A DNA stretch of 51,259 nucleotides from an uncultured Actinomyces sp. (GCA_964351035.1 CAYGMM010000001.1:1604-52862); one strand, 5' to 3'. Counted from the stretch's first letter, positions 4,329 through 51,259 are shown. Made by a program: numbers and translations. Notes: a model not told the origin generated them from the letters alone.

Positions 4329-5611
4329 CCGTGGTGATTCGCAACGTGGCGCCGTACGGCGAGGATCTGGTGGATCTCACACTGGCCGACGGTCGTATCG
4401 CCCGGGTGGACGTGGCCGGGCAGGCGCCGGCGGGGGAGCAGGAGATCGACGCGACCGGCCTGATCGCGCTGCCGGGTCTGGTCGATCTGCACACGCATCT
4501 ACGTGAACCCGGGCGTGAGGATGCCGAGACGATCGAGTCCGGTACGGCCGCCGCCGCTCTCGGCGGGTTCACGGCCGTCCATGCGATGGCCAATACCCAA
4601 CCCGTGGCGGACACAGCCGGCGTCGTGGAACAGGTGTGGCGACGTGGCCAGGAGGCCGGTCACTGCGACGTCCATCCGGTGGGCGCGGTGACGGTCGGTC
4701 TCGCCGGTGAGCGCCTCGCCGAACTCGGGGCGATGGCCGACTCCGCCGCACGGGTGCGGGTCTTCAGCGACGACGGCATTTGCGTAAGCGACGCCGTCCT
4801 CATGCGCCGGGCGCTGGAATACGTCAAGGCGTTCGACGGCGTCATCGCCCAGCACGCCCAGGAGCCACGACTGACCGAGGGCGCTCAAATGAACGAGGGT
4901 GAACTCTCCGGTGTTCTTGGGCTGCGCGGCTGGCCGCCGGTGGCGGAAGAGGCGATCATCGCCCGCGATGTCCTGCTCGCCGAACATGTTGGCTCACGCG
5001 TGCACATCTGCCATCTGAGCACCCGCGGATCGGTCGACATCATCCGCTGGGCCAAGGCCCGCGGCATTGATGTCACGGCCGAGGTCACGCCGCATCACCT
5101 GATTCTCACCGAAGAACTCGCAACGACGTACGACCCGAAATACAAGGTGAACCCGCCACTGCGCACCGCCGATGATGTCGAAGCGGTCCGCGAAGGTCTC
5201 GCCGACGGCACCATCGACATCGTCGCGACCGACCACGCGCCGCATGCGCACGAGGACAAGGACTGCGAGTGGGCGGCCGGTGCATTCGGCATGCTCGGTC
5301 TGCAGACCGCTCTGAGCGTGGTCATCGAGACGATGGTGGACGCCGGACGGCTGAACTGGCGTGAGGTCGCCGATCGCATGGCAACGGCACCAGCACACAT
5401 TGGTCGGGTGGTCGATCAGGGGCGCCCTCTCGAAGTGGGCGAGCCGGCCAACATCGTCCTCGTTGATCCCGGGGCCCGTTGGTGGGTTGACCCGGACCAA
5501 CTGGCCTCACGCAGTCGCAACACGCCGTTCGAGGGTCGCGAGATGTCCGGTCGGGTCATCGCCACCTTCCTTCGTGGTCGCCCCACCGTTCTGGACGGGG
5601 CTCTCGTATGA
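4325..5611 (+). CDS. pyrC: dihydroorotase
   Basis: [10 protein letters not shown] metal-binding motif and [12 protein letters not shown] overlaps on both sides. Confidence 0.93.
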
Positions 5612-6123
5612 GCGACGCCCTCGCTCGCACGCTGTGGGTGCTCATCGTGGTCGCGGCCATCGCCGCGACGCTGTGGGCCATGCGCCGCGGATGGAAGCGC
5701 CGCCAGGCCCGCCAGTCCGATATCGCCGCGCCACCCGTCGTGCCGCCCGATGTCGGCTCGACCCTCCTGGGTCCCGTTACCGGGAGATACGTGGGCACCG
5801 TGAGCGCGGGCGACTGGCTCGATCGGGTCGCCGTCCACGACCTGGGCGTGCGCAGTGCCGCCGACGTCACGATCACCGAGGCCGGTGTTGTCATACGTCG
5901 CCAGGGGGCCGCCGATCTCTTCCTCGCGACCGATGCCATCCATGGCGTACGCGCCGATCGGGGGATCGCCGGACGCGTGGCTGAGCGCGGTGGGGTGCTC
6001 GTCGTCACCTGGGACCTAGGTGGCAGGCTGGTCGACAGCGGTTTCCGGGCTGACGTGGGCAAAGAGCAGGCGGCCCTGATCAGCACCATCGAGTCAGTGC
6101 TAGCCGAGGAGAGGGCATCATGA
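5608..6123 (+). CDS. conserved N-terminally anchored membrane protein of the pyr operon, function unknown
   Basis: One N-terminal TM segment ([17 protein letters not shown]) followed by a soluble domain. It occupies the slot between pyrC and carA that holds a small membrane-protein gene in mycobacteria (Rv1382, from memory). Translationally coupled on both sides. Confidence 0.7.
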
Positions 6124-15765: not shown

Positions 15766-15876
15766 GGGTCAAGAGCGCCAGCATCAAGCCCCGGCTCGCT
15801 GGCCGGCAACCCTCGGCAACCGCGGTGGGGTGCCCCGGGTGAGGACTAGGTCCGCAACAGCGGGCAAGCGCGGGTC
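15766..15876 (+). promoter_or_regulatory. SAM-IV class riboswitch in the metK leader
   Basis: gggtcaagagcgccagc-atcaagccccggctcgctggccggcaaccctc...cgcggtggggtgccccgggtga...gcgggcaagcgcgggtc matches, block for block, the mycobacterial SAM-IV sequence as I remember it. It ends about 12 nt before the gaaggg SD of metK. Confidence 0.8.
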
Positions 15877-15895
15877 GATTGACCCCGACGAAGGG

Positions 15896-17101
15896 ATGCT
15901 TGTGTCACGTCGCCTGTTCACCTCCGAATCCGTTACTGAAGGTCATCCGGACAAGATGGCCGATCAGATCAGCGATGCGATCCTCGACAGTCTGCTCGAG
16001 CAGGACCCGCGCAGTCGTGTCGCGGTGGAGACCTTGTTGACGACGGGCCAGGTGCACGTGGCCGGCGAGGTCACGACCGATGGATACGCGGATGTCATGA
16101 ACATCGTGCGCGATGTTGTCCTGGAGATCGGCTATGACCATTCGGAGAAGGGATTTGATGGCGAGTCCTGCGGCGTTTCGGTGTCGATCGGTGCGCAGTC
16201 CCCGGATATCGCCCAGGGCGTCAACGATGCGATCGAAGAGCGTGAGGGGCACAGTGCCGATCCACTCGACCGTCAGGGCGCGGGCGACCAGGGGTTGATG
16301 TTCGGGTACGCCAGCACCGATACCCCGAGCCTGATGCCGCTGCCGATCTCGCTGGCCCATCGACTCGCCGAGCAGCTCACCGCCGTACGCAAGGACGGCA
16401 CGATGGGCTACCTCCGTCCCGATGGCAAGACGCAGGTGACGATCGAGTACGACGAGCAGGACAAGCCGCTGCGGATCGACACCATCGTGGTGTCCAGTCA
16501 GCACGCCAAGGATGTCGATCTCGATGCCACGCTGGCGCCGGAGATCCGTGCCAACGTCGTTGAGCCGATCCTGGCGCAGGTGGATCTGCCCAGCGACGAC
16601 TTCCGACTCCTGGTCAATCCGACGGGTCGCTTCGAGGTGGGCGGGCCGATGGGCGACGCCGGTCTCACGGGACGCAAGATCATCGTGGACACCTACGGGG
16701 GGATGGCACGTCACGGCGGCGGAGCCTTCAGCGGCAAGGACCCGTCGAAGGTGGACCGCTCAGCGGCCTACGCCATGCGCTGGGTGGCCAAGAATGTCGT
16801 GGCGGCCGGACTCGCCGATCGCTGCGAGGTACAGGTGGCTTACGCCATCGGCAAAGCGCATCCGGTGGGGGTCTTCGTCCAGACGTTCGGGACCGGCGTG
16901 CTGCCCGATGAGCAGATCCAAGAGGCGGTGCTCGAGGTGTTCGACCTGCGTCCGGCCGCGATCATCCGCGACCTGGATCTGCTGCGGCCGATCTATCGGC
17001 CGACGGCGGCGTACGGCCACTTCGGTCGGGAGTTGCCGAACTTCACGTGGGAGCGAACTGATCGCGCCGACGCGCTGAAGGCGGCTGCCGGCGCGAAGTA
17101 G
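15896..17101 (+). CDS. metK: S-adenosylmethionine synthetase
   Basis: [44 protein letters not shown]. The start is ATG 15896 or GTG 15902. The ORF-track start 15830 lies inside the riboswitch. Confidence 0.95.
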
Positions 17102-17323: not shown

Positions 17324-18544
17324 CTAGGCCGTCACGGGTCGGCTGGCGGATGCGCGCGCGATGAGTTCGTCCGCGCTCAGCGAGGCGGGATCAACGTCAA
17401 TCGCGTGTACGGACAGGTGGACGGGGCGCTTGCCGAGCGCAACACCTGAGTCATCCAATGCCCGGCGAACGCCATCGGCCAACGTCGAACGATCGACGGT
17501 CCCGACGCCCACAGCGGCGAACGCGCCCGCCGTCCATCGGGCGACCAGAGCCCCCTCGGGCAGCGCCGTGCGCAGCGATCGATACGCCGCGGTGATGACC
17601 TCGTCGCCGTACCCGATGCCGTAGCGGTCGTTGATCTCGAGCAGTTCGTCGATGGTCGCGACGACGCCGTACACCGGTTGGGCAGAGGTCTGGGCGGCAC
17701 TCCACACGGCTGGCGCGAGATCGGTGAGGCCGCGCCGCGACAGTGCGCCCGTGAGGGGATCTGACGTCAGCATGGTGGCGATGCGCGCCTGCTCGGCGGC
17801 GATCCGATCGACTCCGATGATGCGCAGTTGGAGCAGAATCGCGCCGACGGCCAATGCGGTCAGGGCGGCGAGCGCCCAGCCAGTGGTCTGGACGGTCTCG
17901 ATCAGGTACCCGGCAATGACGATGCCCACGAGCGCGGCACCGCCGCCGATCATGCCGGCCGGCCATGACATGGCGATCGGCACGAGCCCGACGAGGATGA
18001 CCAGGGCGTAGGCGAGCGTGACCGGGTTGTCTTCTTCCACTGCCTGCCACGACACGAAGCCCACAACGCCGGCCATCCCTGCCGCCCAGAGCCACGGCAG
18101 CGCCCGCGGCGCGATCGCCCGACGGCCCGCCACCTGGGCAACCGCGAGTACGACGAGAGCAAAGAGCGCTCCGGCGATATCCGAGACGACGGATGCCTGC
18201 GGGGAGGTGAAGACCAGGAGGAGGGTCAGGACGATGGCGACGGCACCGCTGAGCGTCAGCGCGATGGGGATCGTTTGGTAAGCGCTCTCGAGGCGTAGCC
18301 GCGAGGCAGGATCGCTTAACTGGCGCAGTTCGGGGGCGGGTTGGGTCACATTGACCTCCTCCGGGTCGAGATCTGGGCGCAGCGGCGCAAGGCGATGAGG
18401 TTGAACCGGTCGAGGCCAGGGCACCAAACGCCCCGCGGTGAGACCGAGATACACGAGGGTGTTGATGCCGACGAAGATCAAGAAGACCCGGAAGCCGGTG
18501 GAGGTCAGCAGGCTCTCTGGTAGGAGGAGACCGGTAGGCATCAT
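17324..18544 (-). CDS. polytopic membrane protein with C-terminal degenerate GGDEF domain
   Basis: Starts MMPTGLLLPE, with ATGATG overlapping the TGA of the upstream GT2 gene. Several hydrophobic segments are followed by DPLTGALSRRG...IDELLEINDRYGIGYGDEVI...RWTAGAFAAVG, so GGDEF is replaced by TAGAF and other catalytic positions are changed. The ORF-track N-terminal extension to 18937 overlaps the GT2 gene and is rejected. Confidence 0.8.
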   Translation of the reverse strand: MMPTGLLLPESLLTSTGFRVFLIFVGINTLVYLGLTAGRLVPWPRPVQPHRLAPLRPDLDPEEVNVTQPAPELRQLSDPASRLRLESAYQTIPIALTLSGAVAIVLTLLLVFTSPQASVVSDIAGALFALVVLAVAQVAGRRAIAPRALPWLWAAGMAGVVGFVSWQAVEEDNPVTLAYALVILVGLVPIAMSWPAGMIGGGAALVGIVIAGYLIETVQTTGWALAALTALAVGAILLQLRIIGVDRIAAEQARIATMLTSDPLTGALSRRGLTDLAPAVWSAAQTSAQPVYGVVATIDELLEINDRYGIGYGDEVITAAYRSLRTALPEGALVARWTAGAFAAVGVGTVDRSTLADGVRRALDDSGVALGKRPVHLSVHAIDVDPASLSADELIARASASRPVTA

Positions 18545-20010
18545 GTCGGGACCTTCTCGCCGACATGGTTCCAACGAGCCTCCTGACCGGTGCCGATCCG
18601 CCACAGGCTGTTGACGAAGACCGCCTGCAGGAACAGGTCGTAGGCCAACTCCGGGAACAGGGTGAGGGCGAGCAATCGAGCACGCCAACCCCCTCGCCAA
18701 GCTGTCACCACGCGTTCGAGCCAGAAGACGGACCCGACGGTGAGCCAGAACGGGAACCAGACCCACTGATCCAACGCGAGCGCGGTCATCCCCATCAGGG
18801 TCAGTGCGCTCACCAGCGCGACCGTGCCGTAGCCAATACCGAATTGCTGTCCCCAGTAGCGCAGGGTCGCGGCACGGAATCCATAAGCCCCGAGGTTCTC
18901 CAGCGCCCCTCGCTGCCACCTTTGTCTCTGCCGCCACAGGTCACCCCAGGTGGGCATGAGTTCCGTCGTGACCGTGCACTCACGCGGAGACAGCATGGGT
19001 GCCCCGAGAACCTTCAGCGCCAAGGTGAGTTCATTGTCCTCGGTCAACGCCGCAGTGTCGTAGACCTGCCCGGGGGGTCCGGGCAGGAAGACACCGCGCG
19101 CGGCCGCTACGTCAAGCAAGAGCGTGGCGCGGAACATGGATGCGGTGCCGGTGAGCACGAAGACGCGTCCGCGCCGCTGCCGGATCTGAGTTCCGTACCT
19201 CGTGTACTCGTTGCGTTGAAATTGGCCCAGTACCCCGTGCCCAGGCTCGCCCGAGAACAAGCCCCCGATAGCGCCGAGTTCCGTGTCATCTTCGAGGCTC
19301 TGCGCGCCGACCGCGATGAAGTCCGCACCGAGCGTGGTGTCGGCGTCCATGACGAGCACGAGGTCTTCTCCACCCATCACGGGGAGCAGTCGATCGAGGG
19401 CCTGATTAAGTGCGCCGCCCTTCTTCTCGGTGTTGTTCCTCGTCTCGAAGACCTCATGCCCGAACCCGCGGGCGATCTCAGCGGTGCGATCGGTGCAGTT
19501 GTCCGCAACGACAATGACGCGGTCCGGTGCGCGTGATTGACGCGACAGTGCTTCGAGGGTGGCGCCGATGCGGTCCTGTTCATTGTGTGCGGGGATGAGA
19601 ACGGTCACCCGCAAACGTCGACCCGGCACCGGGGGTCGCTCATCGCCGCGCAGCAGTTCGAGGTAGCGACGGTAAGGGCTCAACGCCGAAAGGGTGGATA
19701 GGGCTTCGAGCAAGATCGTGATGACGACGATCGCCCCGAGAGCGACGAGGGCGCCGGTGATGACCTGGCTGGGCGGCTGAGCGTCTGAGACGAGCACCGT
19801 CCACGGCCCGATCTGGGTCTGTTCAATGGATCCGGAAGTCTCCACCGGGGCCAGTAGCCGCGCCACGGTCAGGGCGAGGACGGCCACCGCGGCGATGGCC
19901 ACGAGGACGAAGACGACGACGAGTCGCACGTAAAAGGCAGGTCGGAGGGTCAGCGCGGACGGCGGGGGGAGCGGCGGTGCTCCAATATCGCTCGGGTCCG
20001 CCGGGGTCAC
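18541..20010 (-). CDS. family-2 processive beta-glycosyltransferase (polysaccharide synthase-like)
   Basis: VLIPAHNEQ, VVADNCTD, VMDADT, TEDNELT (TED) and RQRQRWQRG (QxxRW), with N- and C-terminal TM segments. GTG 20010 is chosen as start (alternative ATG 20082). The ORF-track extension to 21291 runs antisense through priA. Confidence 0.83.
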   Translation of the reverse strand: MTPADPSDIGAPPLPPPSALTLRPAFYVRLVVVFVLVAIAAVAVLALTVARLLAPVETSGSIEQTQIGPWTVLVSDAQPPSQVITGALVALGAIVVITILLEALSTLSALSPYRRYLELLRGDERPPVPGRRLRVTVLIPAHNEQDRIGATLEALSRQSRAPDRVIVVADNCTDRTAEIARGFGHEVFETRNNTEKKGGALNQALDRLLPVMGGEDLVLVMDADTTLGADFIAVGAQSLEDDTELGAIGGLFSGEPGHGVLGQFQRNEYTRYGTQIRQRRGRVFVLTGTASMFRATLLLDVAAARGVFLPGPPGQVYDTAALTEDNELTLALKVLGAPMLSPRECTVTTELMPTWGDLWRQRQRWQRGALENLGAYGFRAATLRYWGQQFGIGYGTVALVSALTLMGMTALALDQWVWFPFWLTVGSVFWLERVVTAWRGGWRARLLALTLFPELAYDLFLQAVFVNSLWRIGTGQEARWNHVGEKVPT

Positions 20011-20088
20011 ACGTCTATCTAAACATTCTCTCTGCCGCGACTGGGGCGTCACTTCTGCCCCGTCGGACCGGACTGACACCATCGGGGC

Positions 20089-22071
20089 ATGTCGGAGTTG
20101 CCGGTTGCGCGCGTCCTGGTCGACGTGCCTCTCGCGCACCTGGACCGGCCCTTCGATTACACCGTTCCCGATTCCATGTCCGTCGACGCGGTCCCGGGCG
20201 CCCGGGTCCGCGTGCGCTTCGCCGGCCGATTGGTCAACGGCTTCCTGCTGGAGCGAGTTGCCTCGAGCGAGCACGCTCGACTGCAACCGCTGCAGCGCGT
20301 GACCTCCCCGGTCCCCGTCCTCACGCCCGAGGTCGCCACGCTGGCTCGCGCCGTGGCGGATCGCTACGCCGGCACCCTGTCCGACGTCCTGCGTACCGCG
20401 GTCCCGCCACGTCACGCGCGCGCCGAGGCCCAGGTCCTGGCCGAGCCCGCCCCCACCGCCGTGCTCGCCGATCCCCCCACGCCCGATGCAGTGGATGCCT
20501 GGTCGACATACGCCGGTGGTGACGCGCTGCTGCATCGGCTCACCGATGGCGCGCGCGGCATCCGTGCGGTGTGGGACGCCGCTCCCGGCGGGGGCCAGGG
20601 CGATGCCGGTGACTGGCCCGACCGCGTGGCCGACTTGGCGGCGGCCGCCCAGCCCCACGGCGGTGTGGTCCTCGTCGTCCCCGATGCCCGCGATGTCGCG
20701 CGCGTCGACGGCGCCCTGCGGCATCGGCTCGGCGATGACGCGCATGTCACGCTCACGGCCCAGCTTGGCCCACAGCGCCGCTACGCCAACTTCCTCCGGG
20801 CCGCTACGGGTCGCACCCGCGTCGTCCTGGGGACCCGAGCCGCCGTGTTCGCGCCGGTGATCGATCCGTCGCTGCTGGTCATCTGGGATGACGGTGACGA
20901 TTCCCACGACGAGCCACACGCGCCCTATTGGCATGCGCGCGAAGTACTCGCCCTGCGCGCCCACCTGTCCGGGGCCTCGCTCGTTGCCGGGGGTTTCGCG
21001 CGTTCGGTCGAGGCACAGGCGTGGATCGAGTCCGGGTGGGCCAAGCCGGTGGTCCTGAAGCGTGAGGCTCTGCGCATAACGGCCCCTCGAGTCACTGCCG
21101 ATGACGCCCATGATGAGCAGGGGCCTGCGCGGCTGCCGTCCCGGTCGTGGCAGATCGCGCGCACCGCCCTCGAGTCCGGGCCCGTGCTGGTGCAGGTCTC
21201 GCGCCGTGGCTACCTCCCGGGGCTGGCCTGCCAGCGCTGCCGCACGCCAGCGCGCTGTGCCGCCTGCGCGGGACCCCTGGAACTGCCGCACGCCGGCGGT
21301 GCTCCCGTGTGCCGCTGGTGTTCAACCGCGGCCCTTCACTGGCGCTGTGCGGAGTGCGGAGCCGATCGGCTCCGCGCCATGAGCGTGGGCTCGGCGCGCA
21401 CGGTCGAAGAACTCGGCCGTGCCTTCCCCAGCACGCGCATCCTGTCGTCGAGTGGTGATCACATCCTCGATCGCATCGACGGTGGAGGGTTGGTCGTGGC
21501 CACGCCTGGTGCCGAGCCGATCTCCGCCGACGGGTACGCCGCCGTTCTCATCCTCGACGCCCACGCGCATCTGTCGCGCGCGGCGCTACGGGCGGGGGAG
21601 GAGACCGCGCGCCGCTGGTTCGGTGCCGCGGCACTGGCGCGACCCGGTGCTCCTGTGGTGATCACGGCGCCCCCCTCGGTGCCCTTGATCCAGGCCCTCG
21701 TGCGATGGGACCCCGCAGGCTACGCCGCGCGCGAACTCGCCGAACGGTCCGAACTCGGACTACCGCCGGCCGTGCGATGCGCCAGCATCGTGGGCGACCC
21801 TGCGCTGGTCGCGGAGGTAGCCGACTCCCTGTCCGACGACGTACGACGGGTCGGTCCGCTGGATTTGCCCAACAACGCGCGCAGCCGACTTCGGCTCGGC
21901 GACGAAGCGCCCGAGCGGCTCTCCCGCTTGCTGGTGACGGCCCCGCGCTCCGCAGGGGGCACGTTGACGTCGGCGCTTCACGGCATCCAAGCGCAGCGGT
22001 CGGCCCGCAAGGATCCTCGAACCCTCGCCATCCACGTCGATCCACTCGACTGGGGCAGCGACCTCGCGTAA
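20089..22071 (+). CDS. priA: primosomal protein N' (PriA family), ATPase motifs degenerate
   Basis: N-terminal VARVLVDVPLAHLDRPFDYTVP and RVRVRFAGRLVNGFL, plus the four-CxxC zinc region CQRC...CAAC...CRWC...CAEC. No GKT/GKS is present anywhere in the protein. Confidence 0.88.
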   Translation: MSELPVARVLVDVPLAHLDRPFDYTVPDSMSVDAVPGARVRVRFAGRLVNGFLLERVASSEHARLQPLQRVTSPVPVLTPEVATLARAVADRYAGTLSDVLRTAVPPRHARAEAQVLAEPAPTAVLADPPTPDAVDAWSTYAGGDALLHRLTDGARGIRAVWDAAPGGGQGDAGDWPDRVADLAAAAQPHGGVVLVVPDARDVARVDGALRHRLGDDAHVTLTAQLGPQRRYANFLRAATGRTRVVLGTRAAVFAPVIDPSLLVIWDDGDDSHDEPHAPYWHAREVLALRAHLSGASLVAGGFARSVEAQAWIESGWAKPVVLKREALRITAPRVTADDAHDEQGPARLPSRSWQIARTALESGPVLVQVSRRGYLPGLACQRCRTPARCAACAGPLELPHAGGAPVCRWCSTAALHWRCAECGADRLRAMSVGSARTVEELGRAFPSTRILSSSGDHILDRIDGGGLVVATPGAEPISADGYAAVLILDAHAHLSRAALRAGEETARRWFGAAALARPGAPVVITAPPSVPLIQALVRWDPAGYAARELAERSELGLPPAVRCASIVGDPALVAEVADSLSDDVRRVGPLDLPNNARSRLRLGDEAPERLSRLLVTAPRSAGGTLTSALHGIQAQRSARKDPRTLAIHVDPLDWGSDLA

Positions 22072-32863: not shown

Positions 32864-33694
32864 ATGGCCGACCTCACATCGACGAGGTCGCCTCGGGTGG
32901 CGGAGATCCGCCGACTGCACGACCGAAGGCACCGCGCGCAGCGCGGTGCCTTCGTCGTCGAAGGACCCCAGGCGGTCGAGGCGGCGCTGCACTCGGCGGT
33001 GAGCGAGCTCTACGTCACGCGCGAGGCCGCCGATCGCTACGCGACGCTGGTGGAGCGGGCGCGTGCGCAGGGTGCGCAGGTCCATACCGCCAGCGAGGAC
33101 GTCCTCGCGGCGATGGCCGAAACCCGACAGCCGCAGGGACTGATTGCCGTGTGCCCGCTGGTGACGGTCGGGCTCGAGGCCGCACTTGCCGCTGCGACGA
33201 AGCGCCCCCTGCGATGTGTGGTGCTTTTGGACCGGGCCAATGACCCCGGCAACGCCGGCACGGTGATTCGTACCGCTGATGCACTGGGCGTGGGTGCGGT
33301 GATCTTCACCGAGGGGTCGGTGGATCCGCACAATGGCAAGGTGGTGCGCTCGACGGCGGGTTCGCTGTTCCACATTCCCATCGCGGCCGATATTGCTGTG
33401 TCAGACGCGATCGGTGCGCTCGTTGCCGCCGGGTACGTGCTTGTCGCCGCCGATGCGCAGGGGAGTGTGCACCTCGGCACGATGGGGGCCGAGGCGGTGC
33501 TCTGTGGCCCGGTGGCGTGGGTCATCGGCAACGAGGCGCACGGCGTCCATGAGGATCTGCGCGCGGCCGCCCACGAGACGGTGTCGATTCCCATGTCGGG
33601 CGGCGCCGAGAGCCTCAACATGGCCGCGGCCGCGGCCATCTGCCTCTACGCCACCCGCATCGCCCAACACCCCAACGCCGTTTCTCCCGCTTAG
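32864..33694 (+). CDS. TrmH/SpoU-family RNA 2'-O-methyltransferase (TsnR-like)
   Basis: DPGNAGTVIRTADALG, VIGNEAHGV, IPMSGGAESLNMAAAAAICLY. ATG 32864 lies 2 nt after the rplT stop. Confidence 0.85.
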   Translation: MADLTSTRSPRVAEIRRLHDRRHRAQRGAFVVEGPQAVEAALHSAVSELYVTREAADRYATLVERARAQGAQVHTASEDVLAAMAETRQPQGLIAVCPLVTVGLEAALAAATKRPLRCVVLLDRANDPGNAGTVIRTADALGVGAVIFTEGSVDPHNGKVVRSTAGSLFHIPIAADIAVSDAIGALVAAGYVLVAADAQGSVHLGTMGAEAVLCGPVAWVIGNEAHGVHEDLRAAAHETVSIPMSGGAESLNMAAAAAICLYATRIAQHPNAVSPA

Positions 33695-33748
33695 CGGGAC
33701 AGATGGTCGATGGCAGCCCGCCAGCGGCCCGTATCGACCATTTCTCCC
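33680..33748. repeat. palindromic intergenic element R4, overlapping the last codons and stop of the trmH-like gene
   Basis: gtttctcccgcttagcgggacagatggtcga ... tcgaccatttctccc. The left part is nearly identical to the centre of R3 (cgtttctcccgctaagcgggacaaatggtcga). Confidence 0.7.
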
Positions 33749-33882
33749 ACCACGGGAGCCCGCCAAGAAGGGGCAGGGACGAAAGTCCCCACGACACGGG
33801 TCGTTCGGCGACCGGTCACGCGGTAACGGTGCGCGCACACTCGAAGCATTCGGGCTAACCGAGCCCCGAGGGAGGCACGCGC

Positions 33883-34647
33883 ATGTCCTACTACCGAATG
33901 CCGATTTTGGAGGAGAAGGGCTATGTCGTCCTCTCCCGCGACAACCGGGTCATCGAACCCCGCGAGTGGACCGATCTGGAGTGGGTCGATTGGAAGTCCT
34001 CCGGGGACACACGCTTTGCTCCGCTGGCATCGGCGTACGGCGACATCGAGTGCAACGCCTTCTGGCACTTCGACCCACCGAAGCCGGACAAGGACGGGGT
34101 GTGGATTGACTCCCAGGTAGAGATCGCGCCCACCCTGGCCGAGATCGCCCGCGAGCCAGAGGCCAACGTCGGCCGCGTGCGCATCATCGAGTTGCAGCCC
34201 AACTCCTACGCCGATGCGCTCTATAACTCCCACCTCGACGACAACAACCGCATCAACCCGGACGGCGAGGGCTGGATCGTCCGTGGCTTCCGCAACCTGA
34301 GCGATGACGGTGAGTCCTTCATGGTGCTGCGCGAGGACATCGATGACCCCAGCACCGAGACGCGCATCGCGCTCCCGGCCGGCGCAAGGATCATCGTTGA
34401 CTCCGAGCGCATGTGGCACTCGGTGTGGCACAACGGCGACGAGCCGCGCTACTGCCTGATCACATCCTTCGAGTCTGGCCCCGCGCTGGAGAAGTGGATC
34501 TTCGAGAACGACCCCACCCTTGATGTGGAGATGGCCGACCTCGACGAGGACTTCGCGCGCGAGCAGGAGGAGCAGGCCCAGGAGCGCCGGGCCAAGCGCA
34601 CCGCCCACTACGGGTACGACCCGACCTCGGTCCGATCCGAGGCCTAG
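33883..34647 (+). CDS. uncharacterised protein, paralog A (HxD...H...R cupin / 2OG-Fe(II)-oxygenase-like pattern, tentative)
   Basis: ATG with a gagggagg SD 7 nt upstream. Paralogous to 34783..35544 along the whole length. Conserved SHLDDNNR, ALPAGARIIVDSERMWHSVWHNGDEPRYCLITS. Charged C-terminal tail ending SEA. Confidence 0.85.
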   Translation: MSYYRMPILEEKGYVVLSRDNRVIEPREWTDLEWVDWKSSGDTRFAPLASAYGDIECNAFWHFDPPKPDKDGVWIDSQVEIAPTLAEIAREPEANVGRVRIIELQPNSYADALYNSHLDDNNRINPDGEGWIVRGFRNLSDDGESFMVLREDIDDPSTETRIALPAGARIIVDSERMWHSVWHNGDEPRYCLITSFESGPALEKWIFENDPTLDVEMADLDEDFAREQEEQAQERRAKRTAHYGYDPTSVRSEA

Positions 34648-34782
34648 GCACCGGCAACCACCAGGGTGCGGAAGTCCACGTGAATCGCCCGCGTCGGCGC
34701 GTCCGGAATAGGTCCCGGGGCGTCGATGGGGGACAATGTCAGCGGCCCACGGGGGCACAGAACGCTGAAGGGACCGTCGTCG

Positions 34783-35544
34783 ATGGACTACATCAAGCTC
34801 GCTGAACTGGACGAGACCGGCTACGTCGTTCTCGAAAACTACGACCAGGCGGCCGATCCGGCCGAGTGGGAGGAGATCGAGTTCGTCGATTGGAAGTCCT
34901 CCGGCGAGACGCGCTTCGCCCCGCTGGCCTCGGCATACGGCGAACTCGAGTGCAACGGCTTCTGGCACCACAACCCGCCCAAGACCGACAAGGACGGTGT
35001 CTGGGTCGAATCCAACATCGCCAAGGCGCCCGTGCTCAAGGCCCGCGCTGAGGAGCCGGGAGCCAATATTGGCCGCTGCCGTGTGATCGAACTCCAGCCC
35101 AACACCTACGTCGATTCGATCTGGAACCTCCACCTCGACGACAACAACCGCCTCAACCCTGAGGGCACCGGGTGGATCGTCCGCGGGTTCTTCAACCTGA
35201 CCGACAACCCCGACTCGTACATGATCCTGCGCGAGGACAAGGACGACCCCAGCACCGAGACACGCATCCCGCTGCCTGCCGGTGCCCAGGTGATCATCGA
35301 CACCCAGCGCCTCTGGCACGCGGTGTGGCACAACGGCGACGAGCCGCGCTACTGCCTGATCACCTCCTGGGAGTCGGGCCCCGAGCTCGAGGCCTACATC
35401 CAGAGCAAGAATCCGGTCTCCAAGGTCGAGAACGCCCCCCTGGACGAGGCGGTCATCGCCGAGGCCCAGACGGAGGTCGCCCGGCGACGCGCTGCCCGCG
35501 AGGCGCAGTCCGGAGCCATGACCGATGTCATGAGCGAGGCCTGA
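34783..35544 (+). CDS. uncharacterised protein, paralog B (same family as 33883..34647)
   Basis: ATG 34783 with a gaaggga SD 9 nt upstream aligns with the paralog A start. LHLDDNNR, PLPAGAQVIIDTQRLWHAVWHNGDEPRYCLITS. The tail also ends SEA. Confidence 0.85.
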   Translation: MDYIKLAELDETGYVVLENYDQAADPAEWEEIEFVDWKSSGETRFAPLASAYGELECNGFWHHNPPKTDKDGVWVESNIAKAPVLKARAEEPGANIGRCRVIELQPNTYVDSIWNLHLDDNNRLNPEGTGWIVRGFFNLTDNPDSYMILREDKDDPSTETRIPLPAGAQVIIDTQRLWHAVWHNGDEPRYCLITSWESGPELEAYIQSKNPVSKVENAPLDEAVIAEAQTEVARRRAAREAQSGAMTDVMSEA

Positions 35545-35640
35545 GGCGACTTCGCCGAGGCCGCCCCGCGCCGGTAGCGTGGGGTAGTACACCGTCGCGA
35601 CCGGGCGATCTTGCCTGGTGCGCGCCCGACGATAGGGAAG

Positions 35641-36576
35641 ATGCCTGTGTCGACGCCTGCTTCCGTGAGTGTCTCCGAGGACGACGTCCTCGATGCGCTC
35701 GAGGCCGAGGCCATCCACGTGTACCGCGAGGTCGCTGGAGCGTTCCGCCGCCCGGTCCTGCTGTACTCGATCGGCAAGGACTCCTCGGTCCTGCTGCACC
35801 TCGCCCGCAAGGCCTTCCACCCTGCCCCGATTCCGTTCAAGGTGATGCACATCGACACCACCTGGAAGTTCCGGGAGATGATCGAGTTCCGCGACCGTAT
35901 GGCGGAGGAACTCAGCCTCGATCTCAAGGTGCAGACCAACCTGAAGGCGGTCGCCGAGGGCGTCACCCCATTCTCCCATGGCACGCATGAGTACACCCGC
36001 ATCATGAAGACCGTGGCCCTGCGCGAAGGTCTCGATGAGTTACAGGCGGACTGCGCGATCGGTGGTGCCCGTCGTGATGAGGAGAAGTCGCGCGCCAAGG
36101 AGCGCATCTTCTCCCTGCGCGAGCCCGGCCACCGCTGGGATCCGCGCAAGCAGCGCCCCGAGTTCTGGCGTACGGCGAACACCATGCTGGCCGAAGGGCA
36201 GACGATGCGCGCCTTCCCGATCAGCAACTGGACCGAGTTCGACGTGTGGCGCTACATCCGACGCGAGAACATCCCGATCGTCGACCTGTATTTCGCGCGC
36301 GAACGGCCCGTGGTCGAGCGCGAGGGTGCCTTGATCATGGTCGATGACGAGCGACTGCCGCTGCGCGAGGGCGAAACTCCGCAGCACCTGAGCGTGCGCT
36401 TCCGCACGCTGGGCTGCTACCCGCTGTCCGGTGCGGTGGAGTCCACCGCGGCCGTCGATATCGACACTCTCATCGCCGAGATGCTGGAGTCCAACGTCTC
36501 CGAGCGCGCCGGGCGCCTCATCGACGGCGAAGGCAGCGGCTCCATGGAGTCCAAGAAGGCGGAGGGCTACTTCTAA
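35641..36576 (+). CDS. cysD: sulfate adenylyltransferase subunit 2
   Basis: PAPS-reductase-like fold [43 protein letters not shown]. Alternative TTG start at 35611. Confidence 0.9.
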
Positions 36577-38465
36577 TGACCGCTCTGCTCGAACGCTCAT
36601 CCGGCATCGACATCACCCCGGTCGTTCGCCTCGTCACCTGCGGCTCCGTTGATGACGGCAAGTCGACGCTCATCGGCCGACTTCTGGCCGAGACCGGCTC
36701 CATCCCGGAGGACCAGCTGGAGTACGCGCGGCGCACCCGTCGCGGCGGCTCGATGGTTCCGGTCGGCGAGATCGACTTCTCGCTCCTCACCGACGGCCTT
36801 GAGGCCGAGCGTGAGCAGGGCATCACCATCGACGTGGCCTACCGCCACATGTATCTGCCGAGCGGTCGGCGCGTCATCATCGCCGATGCGCCCGGTCACG
36901 AGCAGTACACCCGCAACATGGCCGTGGCGGCCTCCAACGCCGAGGTTGCCGTTCTCCTCGTCGATGCAGCCCGCGGGGTGCGTCCCCCGCCCTTCCGCCA
37001 TCTCACGGTGGTCGCCCTCAGGGGTGTGCGCAGCGTCATCATCGCCATCAACAAGATGGACCTCGTCGGCTACGAGCACGCGACGTATGAGGAACTGTCT
37101 GGCCAGGTCCGGGCGGCAGCGGCGCGACTCGGCCTCGATGAGGTACTGACGATCCCGGTGAGTGCCTTCGCTGGCGACAACGTCACGTCGCCGACCACGC
37201 ACATGTCCTGGTGGCATGGGCCGTCCCTGCTGCAGGCGCTGCAGGACTGGACCCCACCCGAGGGCACGTCGGAGATCCCGTTCCGGCTTCCGGTGCAGTT
37301 CATCATCCGCTCGGGTGGCAACTTCCGCGGCTACGCCGGCACCGTCGCCGGTGGCGTCGTGCGTCCGGGCGATCCGATCGTGGTGGCTGACTCCGGTCAG
37401 ACCGCTTCGGTGGAGCGCATCGTGGGCTTCTCCGGTGACATGGCCGAGGCGCGCACCGGTGATGCGGTGACCATCACGCTCGATCGTGAGGTCGACGTGA
37501 CACGCGGCGACCTACTCGCCGCGGCAGGCACCACGCCGTCGGGCGACACCGCTTGGCCGCAGCCGGCAGACCGATTCGCCGCCGACGTCGTATGGGTGGG
37601 CGAAGAGTCGCTCATGCACGGCCGCTCGTACCTATTGGCCGTCGGCCCGCGCACCGTGCCAGCGACCGTCACGGTCGTCCGTCACCGTCTCGACGTTGTC
37701 TCCGGGCAAAAACTGGCCGCGCGCGTTCTCGACATGAACGACATTGGTCGGATCGAGGTCGCCACCGACACCCCGATCCCGATGGACACCTACGCCGCAT
37801 GTCGCGATACCGGCGGATTCCTTCTCATTGATCGACTCACCGCCGACACCGTTGCCGCCGGCATGGTGACTCACTCGCTGCGTCGTTCGTTGAACGTCGT
37901 TCCGCATGAGTACGAGGTCGACCGCGCAGCACGTGCACGGTTGAAGCATCAGACGCCGCGCGTGGTCTGGCTGACCGGTCTATCCGGCTCGGGCAAGTCC
38001 ACGGTGGCCGATGCCCTCGAGCGTCGCCTGCACGGTCTCGGTATGCACACCTTCGTGCTCGACGGTGACAACGTCCGTACCGGCATCAACAAGGATCTCG
38101 GCTTCACCCCCGAGGACCGAGCCGAAAACGTCCGGCGCGTCGCGGAGGCAGCGAAGTTGATGCTGGAGGCCGGCCTCATCGTCATCGTCGCGCTCATCTC
38201 GCCGTTCCGCCAGGACCGTCGAGCTGCTCGCGAGATCTACGAGGACGGCGAGTTCCTCGAGGTGTACGTCGACACTCCGGTCGAGATGTGCGCCGAGCGC
38301 GACCCGAAGGGCCTGTACGCGAAGGCCAAGGCGGGCACCCTGCCGAACATGACCGGACTCGGTCAGGAGTACGAGCCCCCGGAGAACCCTGACGTCCATC
38401 TCGACGGCACCGCGTCCATCGAGGACAACGTCGACATCCTCGTTCAACGCCTGACGGGTGACTGA
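36576..38465 (+). CDS. cysNC: bifunctional sulfate adenylyltransferase subunit 1 (GTPase) / adenylylsulfate kinase
   Basis: GTPase G1 CGSVDDGKST, G3 DAPGHEQY, G4 NKMD. C-terminal APS kinase LTGLSGSGKST, LDGDNVR, ISPF, DPKGLY. TAATG overlap with cysD. Confidence 0.92.
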   Translation: MTALLERSSGIDITPVVRLVTCGSVDDGKSTLIGRLLAETGSIPEDQLEYARRTRRGGSMVPVGEIDFSLLTDGLEAEREQGITIDVAYRHMYLPSGRRVIIADAPGHEQYTRNMAVAASNAEVAVLLVDAARGVRPPPFRHLTVVALRGVRSVIIAINKMDLVGYEHATYEELSGQVRAAAARLGLDEVLTIPVSAFAGDNVTSPTTHMSWWHGPSLLQALQDWTPPEGTSEIPFRLPVQFIIRSGGNFRGYAGTVAGGVVRPGDPIVVADSGQTASVERIVGFSGDMAEARTGDAVTITLDREVDVTRGDLLAAAGTTPSGDTAWPQPADRFAADVVWVGEESLMHGRSYLLAVGPRTVPATVTVVRHRLDVVSGQKLAARVLDMNDIGRIEVATDTPIPMDTYAACRDTGGFLLIDRLTADTVAAGMVTHSLRRSLNVVPHEYEVDRAARARLKHQTPRVVWLTGLSGSGKSTVADALERRLHGLGMHTFVLDGDNVRTGINKDLGFTPEDRAENVRRVAEAAKLMLEAGLIVIVALISPFRQDRRAAREIYEDGEFLEVYVDTPVEMCAERDPKGLYAKAKAGTLPNMTGLGQEYEPPENPDVHLDGTASIEDNVDILVQRLTGD

Positions 38466-51173: not shown

Positions 51174-51259
51174 CTTAACGGAGAGTTTGATCCTGGCTCA
51201 GGACGAACGCTGGCGGCGTGCTTAACACATGCAAGTCGAACGGTGAAAGCGGAGCTTGC
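51174..51259 (+). rRNA. rrs: 16S ribosomal RNA, 5' end only (continues beyond window)
   Basis: The universal 5' sequence agagtttgatcctggctcaggacgaacgctggcggcgtgcttaacacatgcaagtcgaacgg starts at 51182. The mature 5' end is estimated a few nt upstream. Confidence 0.95.

Follow-up and report, generated by a model that had tools for sequence, protein, structure and literature searches.

PHD2-type enzymes are a precedent for 2-oxoglutarate (2OG) oxygenases that serve as oxygen sensors and act on proteins, and the fungal meroterpenoid enzyme TlxI/TlxJ combines two paralogous 2OG oxygenases in one heterodimer. TauD and AtsK (PF02668) are sulfonate and sulfate-ester Fe/2OG dioxygenases tied to sulfur acquisition. 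Among the proline hydroxylases, cis-P3H carries an H107/D109/H158 triad, with R168 placed 10 residues after H158 (PMC9968057). The same spacing separates H725 from R735 in AspH, in which iron is held by two histidines only, and which has a TPR domain, an ER-luminal location and EGF-domain substrates (PMC6817910).

Here, we describe a tandem pair of paralogous genes in a 51,259-nt stretch of DNA from an uncultured Actinomyces sp., hereafter referred to as the window. Based on their sequences and structure models, the two products, P1 and P2, are likely to be non-haem Fe(II)/2OG-dependent oxygenases, predicted to be hydroxylases of the Asp/Asn/Pro-hydroxylase-like type.

33883..34647, + strand: P1, 254 aa, predicted to be a hydroxylase dependent on Fe(II) and 2OG; open reading frame, member of the P1-type clade
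34783..35544, + strand: P2, 253 aa, paralogue of P1 by BLASTP; open reading frame, member of the P2-type clade

The mechanical reading frame of P2 opens upstream of 34783, at 34726. This longer version was rejected and the start set at 34783, because P2 orthologues initiate at the methionine of MxY(I/V)KL and the 253-aa product is on record at NCBI. Codon-position GC analysis gave a GC3 of 0.89 for both genes, similar to that of adjacent genes, which supports P1 and P2 as genes of the + strand. A 765-aa antisense frame at 33691..35988 (GC1 0.86, GC3 0.64) was set aside as a shadow ORF. No signal peptide or membrane anchor is evident in the P1 and P2 sequences, and both are most likely cytosolic, soluble oxygenases.

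The two proteins share 153 of 254 positions (60% identity, 76% positives, E 8e-114 by BLASTP) with a single one-residue gap; identity reaches 63.8% over residues 1-210 and 19/44 in the tail. The original prediction, made from the DNA sequence without database searches, had described proteins of 254 and 253 aa that align end to end, with more than half of the first ~210 residues identical. The alignment bears this out, and all of the shared blocks quoted at the time were recovered. At the nucleotide level, identity is 69%, ruling out a recent duplication or gene conversion. In a tree of 78 P1-type and 40 P2-type sequences, the P2 orthologues formed one clade (40/40), and the duplication is therefore ancient. 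Across P1 and P2, 88 of the 254 alignment columns are invariant.

Curated family models provided little guidance. The sole Pfam match was to PF05118 (Asp_Arg_Hydrox), at 18.2 bits for P1 and 16.6 bits for P2, both of which fall below the gathering threshold of 22.6 bits. It was also partial, covering residues 167-197 (including H179 and R189) and profile positions 119-155 of 157. One of nine distant homologues matches the same model (E 4.9e-4), a precomputed match exists for the database member P0100, and a few members are named ‘aspartyl/asparaginyl beta-hydroxylase domain-containing protein’ by the NCBI pipeline. Searches of NCBIfam returned no match for P1 or P2, single-sequence and profile searches of the PDB found nothing even at an E-value of 10, PHROGs gave nothing useful, and no TPR or other extra domain was detected by Pfam. 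No described function was found for the homologues, with a literature search on the family in Nanopelagicales coming back empty. The original prediction had likewise been unable to assign a named family, in agreement with the sub-threshold PF05118 scores and the empty NCBIfam and PDB sequence searches. Its impression of a likeness to Asp/Asn beta-hydroxylases (cupin) gains support from the partial PF05118 match, and from AspH being among the fold matches described below.

AlphaFold2 (AF2) models were obtained for P1 (pLDDT 83.3, pTM 0.85) and P2 (pLDDT 91.7, pTM 0.89; all five models at least 90.8). Both display the double-stranded beta-helix (DSBH), with eight core strands and C-terminal helices, confirming the fold. 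In the first P1 model, confidence was low for loops 58-66 and 121-125, adjacent to the active site, and for the terminal residues. Foldseek searches against the PDB gave 207 matches for P1 and 310 for P2 at E<=1e-3, and the top 50 were all Fe/2OG oxygenases except for 3ibm, a cupin 2 domain protein. The family level of the original prediction, Fe(II)/2OG oxygenases, thus agrees with the best PDB matches as well as with the modelled fold. The P1 list was led by 4p7x, 4p7w and 1e5r, followed by AspH, and the P2 list by 4p7w, 4p7x, SnoN and 1e5r; AspH, SnoN, the Cpz10-type 7v4f and PHD2 came next overall. Cis-P4H (4P7W/4P7X) and cis-P3H type II (1E5R/1E5S) were the best matches of both models, with E-values of 4e-7 to 3e-6 over 219-237 columns; for the L-Pro cis-4-hydroxylase the values were E 4e-7 to 9e-7, TM 0.50-0.53 and 222-237 columns. 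In the viral library BFVD, the top matches bear the name Aspartyl/asparaginy/proline hydroxylase, the best of them being a mycobacteriophage protein labelled ‘Aspartyl/asparaginy/proline hydroxylase domain’ (E 1.2e-8).

The free L-proline hydroxylases resemble P1 and P2 in size and in having a DSBH core with a C-terminal helical extension. They differ from them in sequence (14-18% identity, with zero PDB matches by sequence), and P1 and P2 additionally possess the invariant loops DWKSSGDTRFAPLASA, HLDDNNRxNP and DDPSTETR as well as a terminal S-E-A (SEA) tail. With a TM of ~0.5 and this level of identity, the nearest structures support the fold and the superfamily, but not the substrate. Human AspH (5APA, 5JQY and others) occupied ranks 4-17 for the P1 model, with a TM of only ~0.4. 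PHD2/EGLN1, which accounted for many matches of the P2 model, shares the DSBH fold and the HxD...H...R motif; its structural match is weaker than that of the free-proline hydroxylases, and neither P1 nor P2 matches PF13640. Cis-P4H, cis-P3H and AspH, which are among the nearest PDB structures, are all members of the Asp/Asn/Pro hydroxylase family, and according to the models P1 and P2 most likely represent a divergent, lineage-restricted branch of such DSBH enzymes. The enzymes closest in structure use free L-proline or L-pipecolate, and so by analogy our first, tentative guess for the substrate is a free amino acid or a similar small acid.

The residues proposed to form the active site are located as follows.

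34231..34239, + strand: P1 H117-L-D119 (HxD), proposed as proximal ligands of Fe(II), with the invariant DNNRxN loop after them
34417..34449, + strand: P1 H179 (proposed distal Fe ligand), invariant H183, and R189 (proposed binder of the 2OG C5 carboxylate)
35131..35139, + strand: P2 H117-L-D119 (HxD), from orthologue alignments
35317..35349, + strand: P2 H179, H183 and R189, from orthologue alignments and the AF2 model

H117, D119, H179, H183 and R189 are kept in 118/118 orthologues (78 P1-type and 40 P2-type) and are invariant in a 33-sequence alignment of the wider family, down to subfamilies with 33-54% identity. Given this invariance, the objection that the motif might not be conserved in homologues falls away. 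In the AF2 model, strand 178-183 has H179 as its second residue, and strand 189-197 opens with R189. The spacing was partly as first proposed: the arginine does lie 10 residues after a histidine (R189 relative to H179), but the gap from the HxD motif, given as about 70 residues, is 62 from H117 to H179, or 66 to H183. The 10-residue step equals those of cis-P3H (H158/R168) and AspH (H725/R735), and the 17 residues between H117 and R134 correspond to H107/H124 in cis-P3H, whereas the distance from the HxD histidine to the distal histidine is 62 here versus 51 in cis-P3H. An RxR pair on the strand before HxD (R98/R100 here, R95/R97 in cis-P3H) is a positional analogy only; R98, R100 and R134 are conserved, and by sequence position they may roughly correspond to R95/R97/R122 of cis-P3H, the ‘handlebar’ arginines for the substrate carboxylate. 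Unlike AspH, P1 and P2 have a full HxD...H triad, with D119 invariant, and lack a TPR domain, which rules out orthology with AspH.

The conserved residues also bear on whether P1 and P2 could be non-catalytic cupin-like proteins, such as pseudo-enzymes, metal sensors or regulators. No member of the family has a described activity, and two distant homologues, P0139 and P0152, have lost both H179 and R189 and look degenerate. However, the triad and the 2OG-binding arginine are fully conserved in the 118 orthologues and in distant subfamilies, a pattern expected of active enzymes, and we consider a non-catalytic role highly improbable.

For the preferred reading as active oxygenases, a reaction course can be suggested. 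As judged from family chemistry, Fe(II) would be held by H117, D119 and H179, and 2OG would chelate the iron with its C5 carboxylate held by R189, probably together with R134 and/or H183. Decarboxylation of 2OG driven by O2 would release succinate and CO2 and leave Fe(IV)=O. The latter would then hydroxylate a C-H bond in a substrate that is polar and probably bears a carboxylate. This substrate may be gripped by the invariant loops, comprising R98, R100, DNNRxN (120-125) and DWKSSGDTRF (36-45).

Database searches retrieved 1491 homologues of P1 and, at E<=1e-20, 2383 of P2, and at 90% identity the family comprises >1400 P1-type, >2300 P2-type and >3600 Ilumatobacteraceae-type clusters. The carriers are Actinomycetota only, largely uncultured ones from freshwater and soil; Longivirga aurantiaca is one cultured carrier. 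A tblastn search of phage and plasmid collections gave zero matches to P1. In genomes where TrmH is 43-63% and PheS 69-87% identical, P1 and P2 retain 65-87% identity, so that by sequence comparison they evolve at the slow rate of an aminoacyl-tRNA synthetase such as PheS. Within a well-known enzyme superfamily, P1 and P2 belong to a subfamily that is uncharacterised and restricted to certain lineages.

The intergenic regions contain several elements, some of which suggest separate expression of the two genes.

33696..33748, + strand: strong hairpin just past the trmH stop codon, separating trmH from P1 (RNA fold)
33776..33789, + strand: GGGACGAAAGTCCC, DosR/DevR-box-like inverted repeat upstream of P1
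33836..33841, + strand: CACACT, hexamer resembling a -10 element, 41 nt upstream of the P1 start, found by inspection of 39 aligned spacers
34732..34737, + strand: GACAAT inside GGGGGACAATG, resembling a -10 element, 45 nt upstream of the P2 start, from the spacer alignment

An equivalent of CACACT with the form (G/C)ACACT-GG is conserved at the same position in related loci, and the hexamer is a putative P1 promoter element. Similarly, almost every P1-P2 spacer keeps the G-rich form (G/C)A(T/G/C)(G/A)AT-GG, and GACAAT may constitute a separate P2 promoter. No canonical sigma-70 site emerged from a consensus scan. The spacers between P1 and P2 range from 73 to 604 nt in 38 loci, indicating that the two genes are never translationally coupled. 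The region 33695-33885 folds with an MFE of -86.5 kcal/mol (z -2.97), and the hairpin within it is probably the trmH terminator. Folding of the P1-P2 spacer was no better than that of shuffled sequences (z -0.62), and no Rfam elements were detected in 33600-35700. The inverted repeat GGGACGAAAGTCCC matches 15/20 positions of the DosR/DevR consensus TTSGGGACTWWAGTCCCSAA (PMC2275270). It is the only exact GGGAC-N4-GTCCC of the window, and this pattern is conserved in 7 related trmH-P1 spacers, at 0.69 per kb compared with 0.039 per kb for the full set of fetched loci.

How the two paralogues work together can be considered from these data. They could form an obligate P1:P2 heterodimer, a complex with a single oxygenase function like that of fungal TlxI/TlxJ. 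A P2-type gene directly follows a P1-type gene in 38/40 cases, both copies have been retained since the ancient duplication, and fixed differences between them (S174T, E175Q, M177L and S180A) are found next to the distal histidine; the TlxIJ heterodimer itself (7VBQ) is among the fold matches, at low rank and with a TM of 0.27-0.37. At the locus level, however, P1-type genes occur without P2 in ~40 loci elsewhere in the genome, all catalytic residues are kept in both paralogues, and a spacer of 73-604 nt lies between the two genes, each of which has a promoter-like element of its own. An obligate heterodimer is therefore doubtful in our view. Because the duplication is ancient, the catalytic residues are intact in both copies, and each gene apparently has its own promoter, P1 and P2 may be either isozymes that differ in substrate or regio-selectivity, or subunits of a heteromer. 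Such a heteromer would be facultative only, since P1-type proteins are also found alone.

Two genes directly downstream of P2 encode enzymes of PAPS synthesis, an adjacency that went unremarked in the original prediction.

35641..36576, + strand: cysD, sulfate adenylyltransferase subunit 2 (TIGR02039, E 3.8e-137), neighbour only; starts at ATG 35641, or at TTG 35611 for the mechanical ORF
36576..38465, + strand: cysNC, fusion of sulfate adenylyltransferase subunit 1 and APS kinase (NF004035, E 4.5e-234), neighbour only

The linkage to cysD-cysNC was assessed over 80 genome loci. In 36 related loci, the pair is flanked by rplT-trmH and pheS-pheT, and 24 of these have the order trmH-P1-P2-pheS without cysDNC. 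The order P1-P2-cysD-cysNC was found in 12 loci, all from one close clade, that of the window itself, with CysD 87-91% identical, and it was therefore counted as one evolutionary event. In other lineages, the same site holds a PIN toxin-antitoxin pair, membrane proteins or a flavodoxin-like gene. Since the linkage is confined to one clade and unrelated genes are inserted at this site elsewhere, the adjacency is treated as coincidental, which it probably is.

A functional coupling to cysD-cysNC could take two forms: release of inorganic sulfur for activation by a sulfate-ester or sulfonate dioxygenase of the AtsK/TauD type, for which these enzymes offer a possible analogy, or hydroxylation to provide an acceptor for PAPS-dependent sulfation. 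It would fit the arrangement of the two cys genes, which begin ~96 nt after P2 on its strand with no predicted + strand terminator between, and the identical four-gene order in the 12 related loci. Against it stand the single event just described, the 24 loci without cys genes, the ~40 single-copy loci elsewhere, and the unrelated insertions at the same spot. Moreover, no PF02668 or sulfotransferase match was obtained at E up to 1, and the Pfam-scanned genes of the window included neither a sulfotransferase nor a transporter for sulfur compounds. We regard such a coupling as very unlikely. TauD/AtsK membership was excluded, with no PF02668 match at this cut-off and none of these enzymes in the top 50 fold matches.

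The PAPS-synthesis genes also touch on the weaker alternative of the original prediction, that P1 and P2 are PAPS-dependent sulfotransferases, in view of the likeness of KSSG(D/E)TR to the PKxGTT 5'-phosphosulfate loop. This short motif likeness and the adjoining genes are all that favours it. The predicted fold is a DSBH and not the alpha/beta P-loop-like fold of sulfotransferases; in the models, KSSGDT is part of a beta-strand and turn (residues 36-50 of the sheet); no sulfotransferase appears in the top 50 structural matches of either model, or in Pfam at E up to 1. The proposal was accordingly rejected, with a residual likelihood that is practically nil.

Other neighbourhoods were equally uninformative for the preferred oxygenase reading. 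At the single-copy P1 loci, a peroxiredoxin gene adjoins in only 7 and rpiB is nearby in 14; a LysM gene is located upstream in two places in the Ilumatobacteraceae subfamily, and other distant homologues have unrelated neighbours. Across the P1/P2, single-copy and distant-homologue loci, no conserved partner gene, transporter or regulator was found that would hint at a substrate.

Both proteins end in the same three residues.

34636..34644, + strand: P1 C-terminal S-E-A, closing a family-specific tail made of helix 222-243 and then YGYDPTSVRSEA; orthologue alignment
35533..35541, + strand: P2 C-terminal S-E-A; orthologue alignment

Of the 78 P1-type sequences, 73 retain S, 71 retain E and 67 retain A, and the P2-type proteins have SEA in 40/40 despite a hypervariable, low-complexity linker of varying length before it. 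The window has 263 stop-to-stop frames with a length of 100 aa or more, and only P1 and P2 have this ending. The 233-aa Ilumatobacteraceae subfamily lacks the tail. The pLDDT of the terminal residues is low in the P1 model and 41 in the P2 model. The original prediction was right about the divergence of the two tails (19/44 identical) and their common SEA ending, but its description of them as charged and divergent falls short, as a conserved RRxxRTAxYGYDP(T/S)xVxSEA is present in P1 orthologues.

Such a tail raises the question of a protein substrate. P1 and P2 might be protein hydroxylases that act on the translation apparatus or another conserved protein, with SEA as a docking peptide. In favour of this are the location between rplT-trmH and pheS-pheT in the 36 related loci, the unusually high conservation, surface loops included (88/254 invariant columns), at a PheS-like rate, the attachment of SEA to a flexible and variable linker, as is usual for short linear motifs, and the presence of the protein hydroxylases AspH and PHD2 among the fold matches. 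However, the promoter-like elements and the terminator hairpin after trmH indicate that P1 and P2 do not form an operon with trmH, the site is an insertion hot spot with unrelated cargo in other lineages, ~40 P1-type genes are located elsewhere in the genome, and the best structural matches are hydroxylases of free amino acids. On balance, we find protein hydroxylation of this kind unlikely. The proposal that the pair is a protein-directed 2OG oxygenase system targeting a core protein of the cell, perhaps one from the translation apparatus, with SEA-COOH as a docking or pseudo-substrate motif, appears quite unlikely; in that case, SEA-COOH would engage a partner protein or the active site of the paralogue.

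With P1 and P2 viewed as likely hydroxylases, the expected chemistry is ordinary for 2OG oxygenases and the enzyme type is common. The present value of the finding lies mainly in an improved annotation and a candidate for enzyme discovery, in an abundant family without an assigned function or curated model, and Longivirga aurantiaca, as a cultured carrier, makes P1 and P2 testable. Should the protein-directed proposal with SEA docking be true, the pair would represent an undescribed regulatory module, responsive to oxygen or 2OG, in Actinobacteria from freshwater and soil, and a DosR-like regulator might control it. If the substrate were identified, the metabolic or protein-modification repertoire of highly abundant freshwater bacteria would grow by one reaction, and the retention of two catalytically intact paralogues and of their terminal SEA would be explained as well.

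Two adjacent genes in the window encode the paralogous proteins P1 and P2:

33883-34647, plus strand: P1, an ORF of 254 aa
34783-35544, plus strand: P2, 253 aa, the conserved part of ORF 34726-35544, from the ATG at 34783

The methionine at 34783 is also the start of the P2 orthologues, and NCBI has a 253-aa product on record. The original prediction of a tandem paralog pair was borne out: the end-to-end alignment of the two proteins has a single 1-residue gap and shows 60% identity and 76% positives (E 8e-114), and all the conserved blocks that it listed were found in the two proteins. The divergence noted in the C-terminal ~40 residues was confirmed (19/44 identical in the tail vs 63.8% over residues 1-210; nucleotides 69%), as were the SEA C-termini, which are absent from all other long frames in the window. 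GC3 is 0.89 for both genes, the same as for the adjoining genes, in a window of actinobacterial, high GC (0.66-0.72). A 765-aa antisense ORF at P1/P2 was dismissed as a shadow frame by composition.

The sole Pfam match of the pair was PF05118 (Asp/Asn beta-hydroxylase), spanning the segment with H179 and R189. The scores, 18.2 bits for P1 and 16.6 for P2, fall short of the 22.6-bit cut-off, and searches of NCBIfam, PHROGs and the PDB, by sequence and by profile, returned no matches, in agreement with the earlier failure to place the proteins in a named family. Structure prediction was clear for P1 (pLDDT 83.3, pTM 0.85) and, from a more diverse input alignment, for P2 (pLDDT 91.7, pTM 0.89; five of five models agree). 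In both models, eight main strands build a beta-sandwich, helices 200-208 and 222-243 come after it and the terminus is disordered, an arrangement consistent with the double-stranded beta-helix that was to be looked for in such models. Foldseek gave hundreds of PDB matches at E<=1e-3 for both models; apart from the cupin 2 domain protein 3ibm, the top 50 were all Fe(II)/2OG oxygenases. L-proline cis-4-hydroxylase (4P7W/4P7X) and proline 3-hydroxylase (1E5R/1E5S) ranked first for both, followed by human aspartyl/asparaginyl beta-hydroxylase (AspH), SnoN, the Cpz10-type hydroxylase 7V4F, 6N1F and PHD2. Among predicted viral structures, the top match was a mycobacteriophage 'Aspartyl/asparaginy/proline hydroxylase domain' protein. 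TM-scores of ~0.5 and identities of 14-18% to the nearest structures establish the superfamily and nearest branch, not orthology. A sulfotransferase fold, suggested earlier from a faint loop resemblance, is contradicted by these matches, and the proteins do not belong to the TauD-like enzymes either. P1 and P2 are probably Fe(II)/2OG oxygenases, as originally read from motif residues that proved invariant.

H117, D119, H179, H183 and R189 are kept in 78/78 P1-type and 40/40 P2-type orthologues from 80 genome loci. Together with R134, D173, N122 and N125, they are also invariant in a 33-sequence alignment that takes in subfamilies just 33-54% identical. Two distant homologues (P0139, P0152) lack H179 and R189 and look degenerate. 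In the models, H179 is residue 2 of strand 178-183 and R189 is residue 1 of strand 189-197. Their spacing of 10 residues equals that of H158/R168 in proline cis-3-hydroxylase (cis-P3H; PMC9968057) and H725/R735 in AspH (PMC6817910), in both of which the Arg anchors 2OG by its C5 carboxylate. Likewise, H117 and R134 lie 17 residues apart, like H107-H124 of cis-P3H, and the strand preceding HxD carries an RxR pair (R98/R100; R95/R97 in cis-P3H). The iron site of AspH has two His only (PMC6817910), whereas P1 and P2 retain the acidic ligand; this predicted full triad and the missing TPR domain rule them out as AspH orthologues. Nor can they be demonstrated to be proline hydroxylases.

In the proposed mechanism, each protein would bind Fe(II) through H117, D119 and H179, and 2OG through the metal and R189, aided by R134 and/or H183. 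O2 would be spent on 2OG decarboxylation, yielding a ferryl species that would hydroxylate a substrate positioned by invariant polar loops. Our tentative choice of substrate is a free amino acid or a comparable small acid, because the enzymes with the nearest structures hydroxylate L-proline or L-pipecolate in free form and the RxR pair is as in cis-P3H. The main alternative, a protein substrate, appears unlikely. P1 and P2 may work separately, or together as a heteromer.

Word-indexed searching brought up 1491 relatives for P1 and 2383 for P2, nearly all unnamed or 'hypothetical'; a few are labeled 'aspartyl/asparaginyl beta-hydroxylase domain-containing protein' (NCBI) and one AlkB (JGI). 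When an HMM was run exhaustively against the representatives of 1.84 billion clusters (50% identity), it gave just 337 matches at E<=1e-3, many fragmentary, which marks the family as narrow. Its carriers include Nanopelagicales-type MAGs, Jatrophihabitantaceae and further Actinomycetes, with Longivirga aurantiaca (Sporichthyaceae) the sole cultured carrier found; phage and plasmid collections held no similar sequence. Ilumatobacteraceae have a 233-aa subfamily without the tail (>3600 clusters). There, a 124-aa LysM-domain gene lies 33 nt 5' of the oxygenase gene (loci L085, 7593-7967, and L086, 2567-2941), and the 323-aa protein P0163 reads as a LysM-oxygenase fusion and looks frameshifted.

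The gene order in the window is infC-rpmI-rplT-trmH, P1-P2-cysD-cysNC, then pheS-pheT-argC-argJ-argB-argD and, further on, argH. The remainder likewise has core housekeeping functions (carB, pyrD, gmk, coaBC, SAM-IV riboswitch-metK, fmt, rsmB, ribBA, hisG). Other features are:

15767-15876: SAM-IV riboswitch (97.1 bits, E 1.4e-16), directly 5' of the metK ORF
17324-21291, minus strand: GGDEF-domain protein (537 aa) and family-2 glycosyltransferase (916 aa)
51175-51259: 16S rRNA gene, 5' end only, truncated by the window edge

The riboswitch covers the mechanically called start of the ORF for metK (S-adenosylmethionine synthetase), 15830-17101. The GGDEF/glycosyltransferase pair breaks the otherwise plus-strand housekeeping synteny and looks like an inserted exopolysaccharide/c-di-GMP module.

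Across genomes, the arrangement trmH-P1-P2-cysD-cysNC-pheS was found in only 12 loci, all close relatives of the window (CysD 87-91% identical), and trmH-P1-P2-pheS without cys genes in 24. Lone P1-type genes occur elsewhere; in 7 loci their neighbor is a peroxiredoxin gene transcribed divergently, and in 14 rpiB is nearby. In other lineages the trmH-pheS space holds unrelated insertions, namely a PIN toxin-antitoxin pair (antitoxin and VapC-like toxin, assigned by eye from translation), a small membrane protein, a flavodoxin-like gene and a membrane transporter-like protein:

L024, 5167-5894
L036/L047/L049, ~4590-5840
L043, 4891-5721
L042, 7743-8885

The site is an insertion hot spot, and the cysDNC adjacency, confined to one close clade, therefore represents one evolutionary event at an insertion-prone site. 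A functional link with cysDNC has a low probability, and a sulfur-linked role of P1/P2 is very improbable. Neighbors of distant homologues were unrelated, and the contexts compared yielded no conserved partner, transporter or regulator, so the substrate cannot be read from gene context.

In a tree of 118 orthologues, P2-type proteins form a single clade (40/40) and the other clade holds all P1-type proteins, paired and single; the duplication is therefore older than the divergence of these genera. The P2-type gene directly follows a P1-type gene in 38/40 cases, and P1-type genes stand alone in ~40 loci. Fixed differences between the clades cluster beside the distal His (S174T, E175Q, M177L, S180A). 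Both proteins are slow-evolving (Longivirga vs window: P1 70%, P2 70%, PheS 75%, RplT 80%, TrmH 48%). One protein on a 973-bp contig, P0111, combines a P2-like core (HQDDNNR, LWHAVWH) with a P1-like C-terminal tail (RTAHYGYDPTTVMSEA), and is either a recombinant of the paralogues or an assembly chimera.

A strong hairpin directly follows the trmH stop, spacers of 188, 135 and ~96 nt precede P1, P2 and cysD, and no Rfam family matched in the P1/P2 stretch. P1-P2 spacers measure 73-604 nt in 38 loci, so the two genes are never coupled. Spacer conservation points to these elements:

33776-33789: GGGAC-N4-GTCCC, GGGACGAAAGTCCC, the only exact copy in the window
33836-33841, plus strand: CACACT, the (G/C)ACACT-GG element 5' of P1
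34732-34737, plus strand: GACAAT, within GGGGGACAATG, the -10-like element of P2

The G-rich P2 element is conserved in nearly all P1-P2 spacers, ~45-60 nt 5' of P2. We infer from conservation that the P1 and P2 -10-like elements may be promoters; a consensus promoter scan found none. In loci L002 and L004, the conserved P1 element, there GACACT, ends six bases 5' of the P1 ATG, which would fit a leaderless mRNA; in the window, by contrast, the P1 leader is 41 nt long and includes a GGGAGG ribosome-binding site.

Another P1-P2 spacer element, GGACACACC-N5-6-TTAGG-N4-CCTAA, lies 66-93 nt 5' of the P2 start in L019, L018, L026, L029, L030, L032, L035-L037, L039, L043, L046, L047, L049, L053, L054, L076 and L079; the window and its clade lack it. 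Its 5-bp arms are invariant and its distance is nearly fixed to P2 and variable to the P1 stop. Beyond the arms the inverted repeat continues outwards and shows some compensatory change (78.7% of cells paired; covariation 0.133 vs 0.083 in shuffles, reached by 2/500). Its position ~17-20 nt 5' of the conserved -10-like element would suit an operator that overlaps the -35 region, or else a hairpin.

Conservation of the GGGAC-N4-GTCCC repeat 5' of P1 extends to 7 related loci, at a density of 0.69 per kb in trmH-P1 spacers vs 0.039 per kb overall, and a conserved GACACGGGTCGTTCGG comes after it. The repeat agrees with the mycobacterial DosR/DevR box consensus, TTSGGGACTWWAGTCCCSAA (PMC2275270), at 15/20 positions. 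This hints that P1, as an O2-dependent enzyme, may be under hypoxia or redox control; the repeat could also be merely a small hairpin.

The ~45-residue C-terminal extension is confined to the Nanopelagicales-type clade. P1 orthologues end in EAQxRRxxRTAxYGYDP(T/S)xVxSEA, and many P2 orthologues have a helix followed by a low-complexity acidic/Gly/Met linker of variable length (e.g. GMGEGMGEGMGGGMGDGMGEVLSEA). SEA forms the final three residues in 40/40 P2-type and ~90% of P1-type proteins. The tail helix is confident in the models and the final 5-10 residues are not. A near-invariant SEA at a low-confidence end is what a short linear motif at the C-terminus would look like; it may bind a partner protein, the paralogue or the protein's own active site.

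In function, P1 and P2 would resemble the Asp/Asn/Pro-hydroxylase branch of the 2OG oxygenases, and they represent an uncharacterised family of a familiar enzyme kind, set apart by its conserved loops, its ancient tandem duplication and its SEA tail. The enzyme class would not surprise a specialist; of more interest are the substrate, in freshwater bacteria of very high abundance, and the role of the tail.
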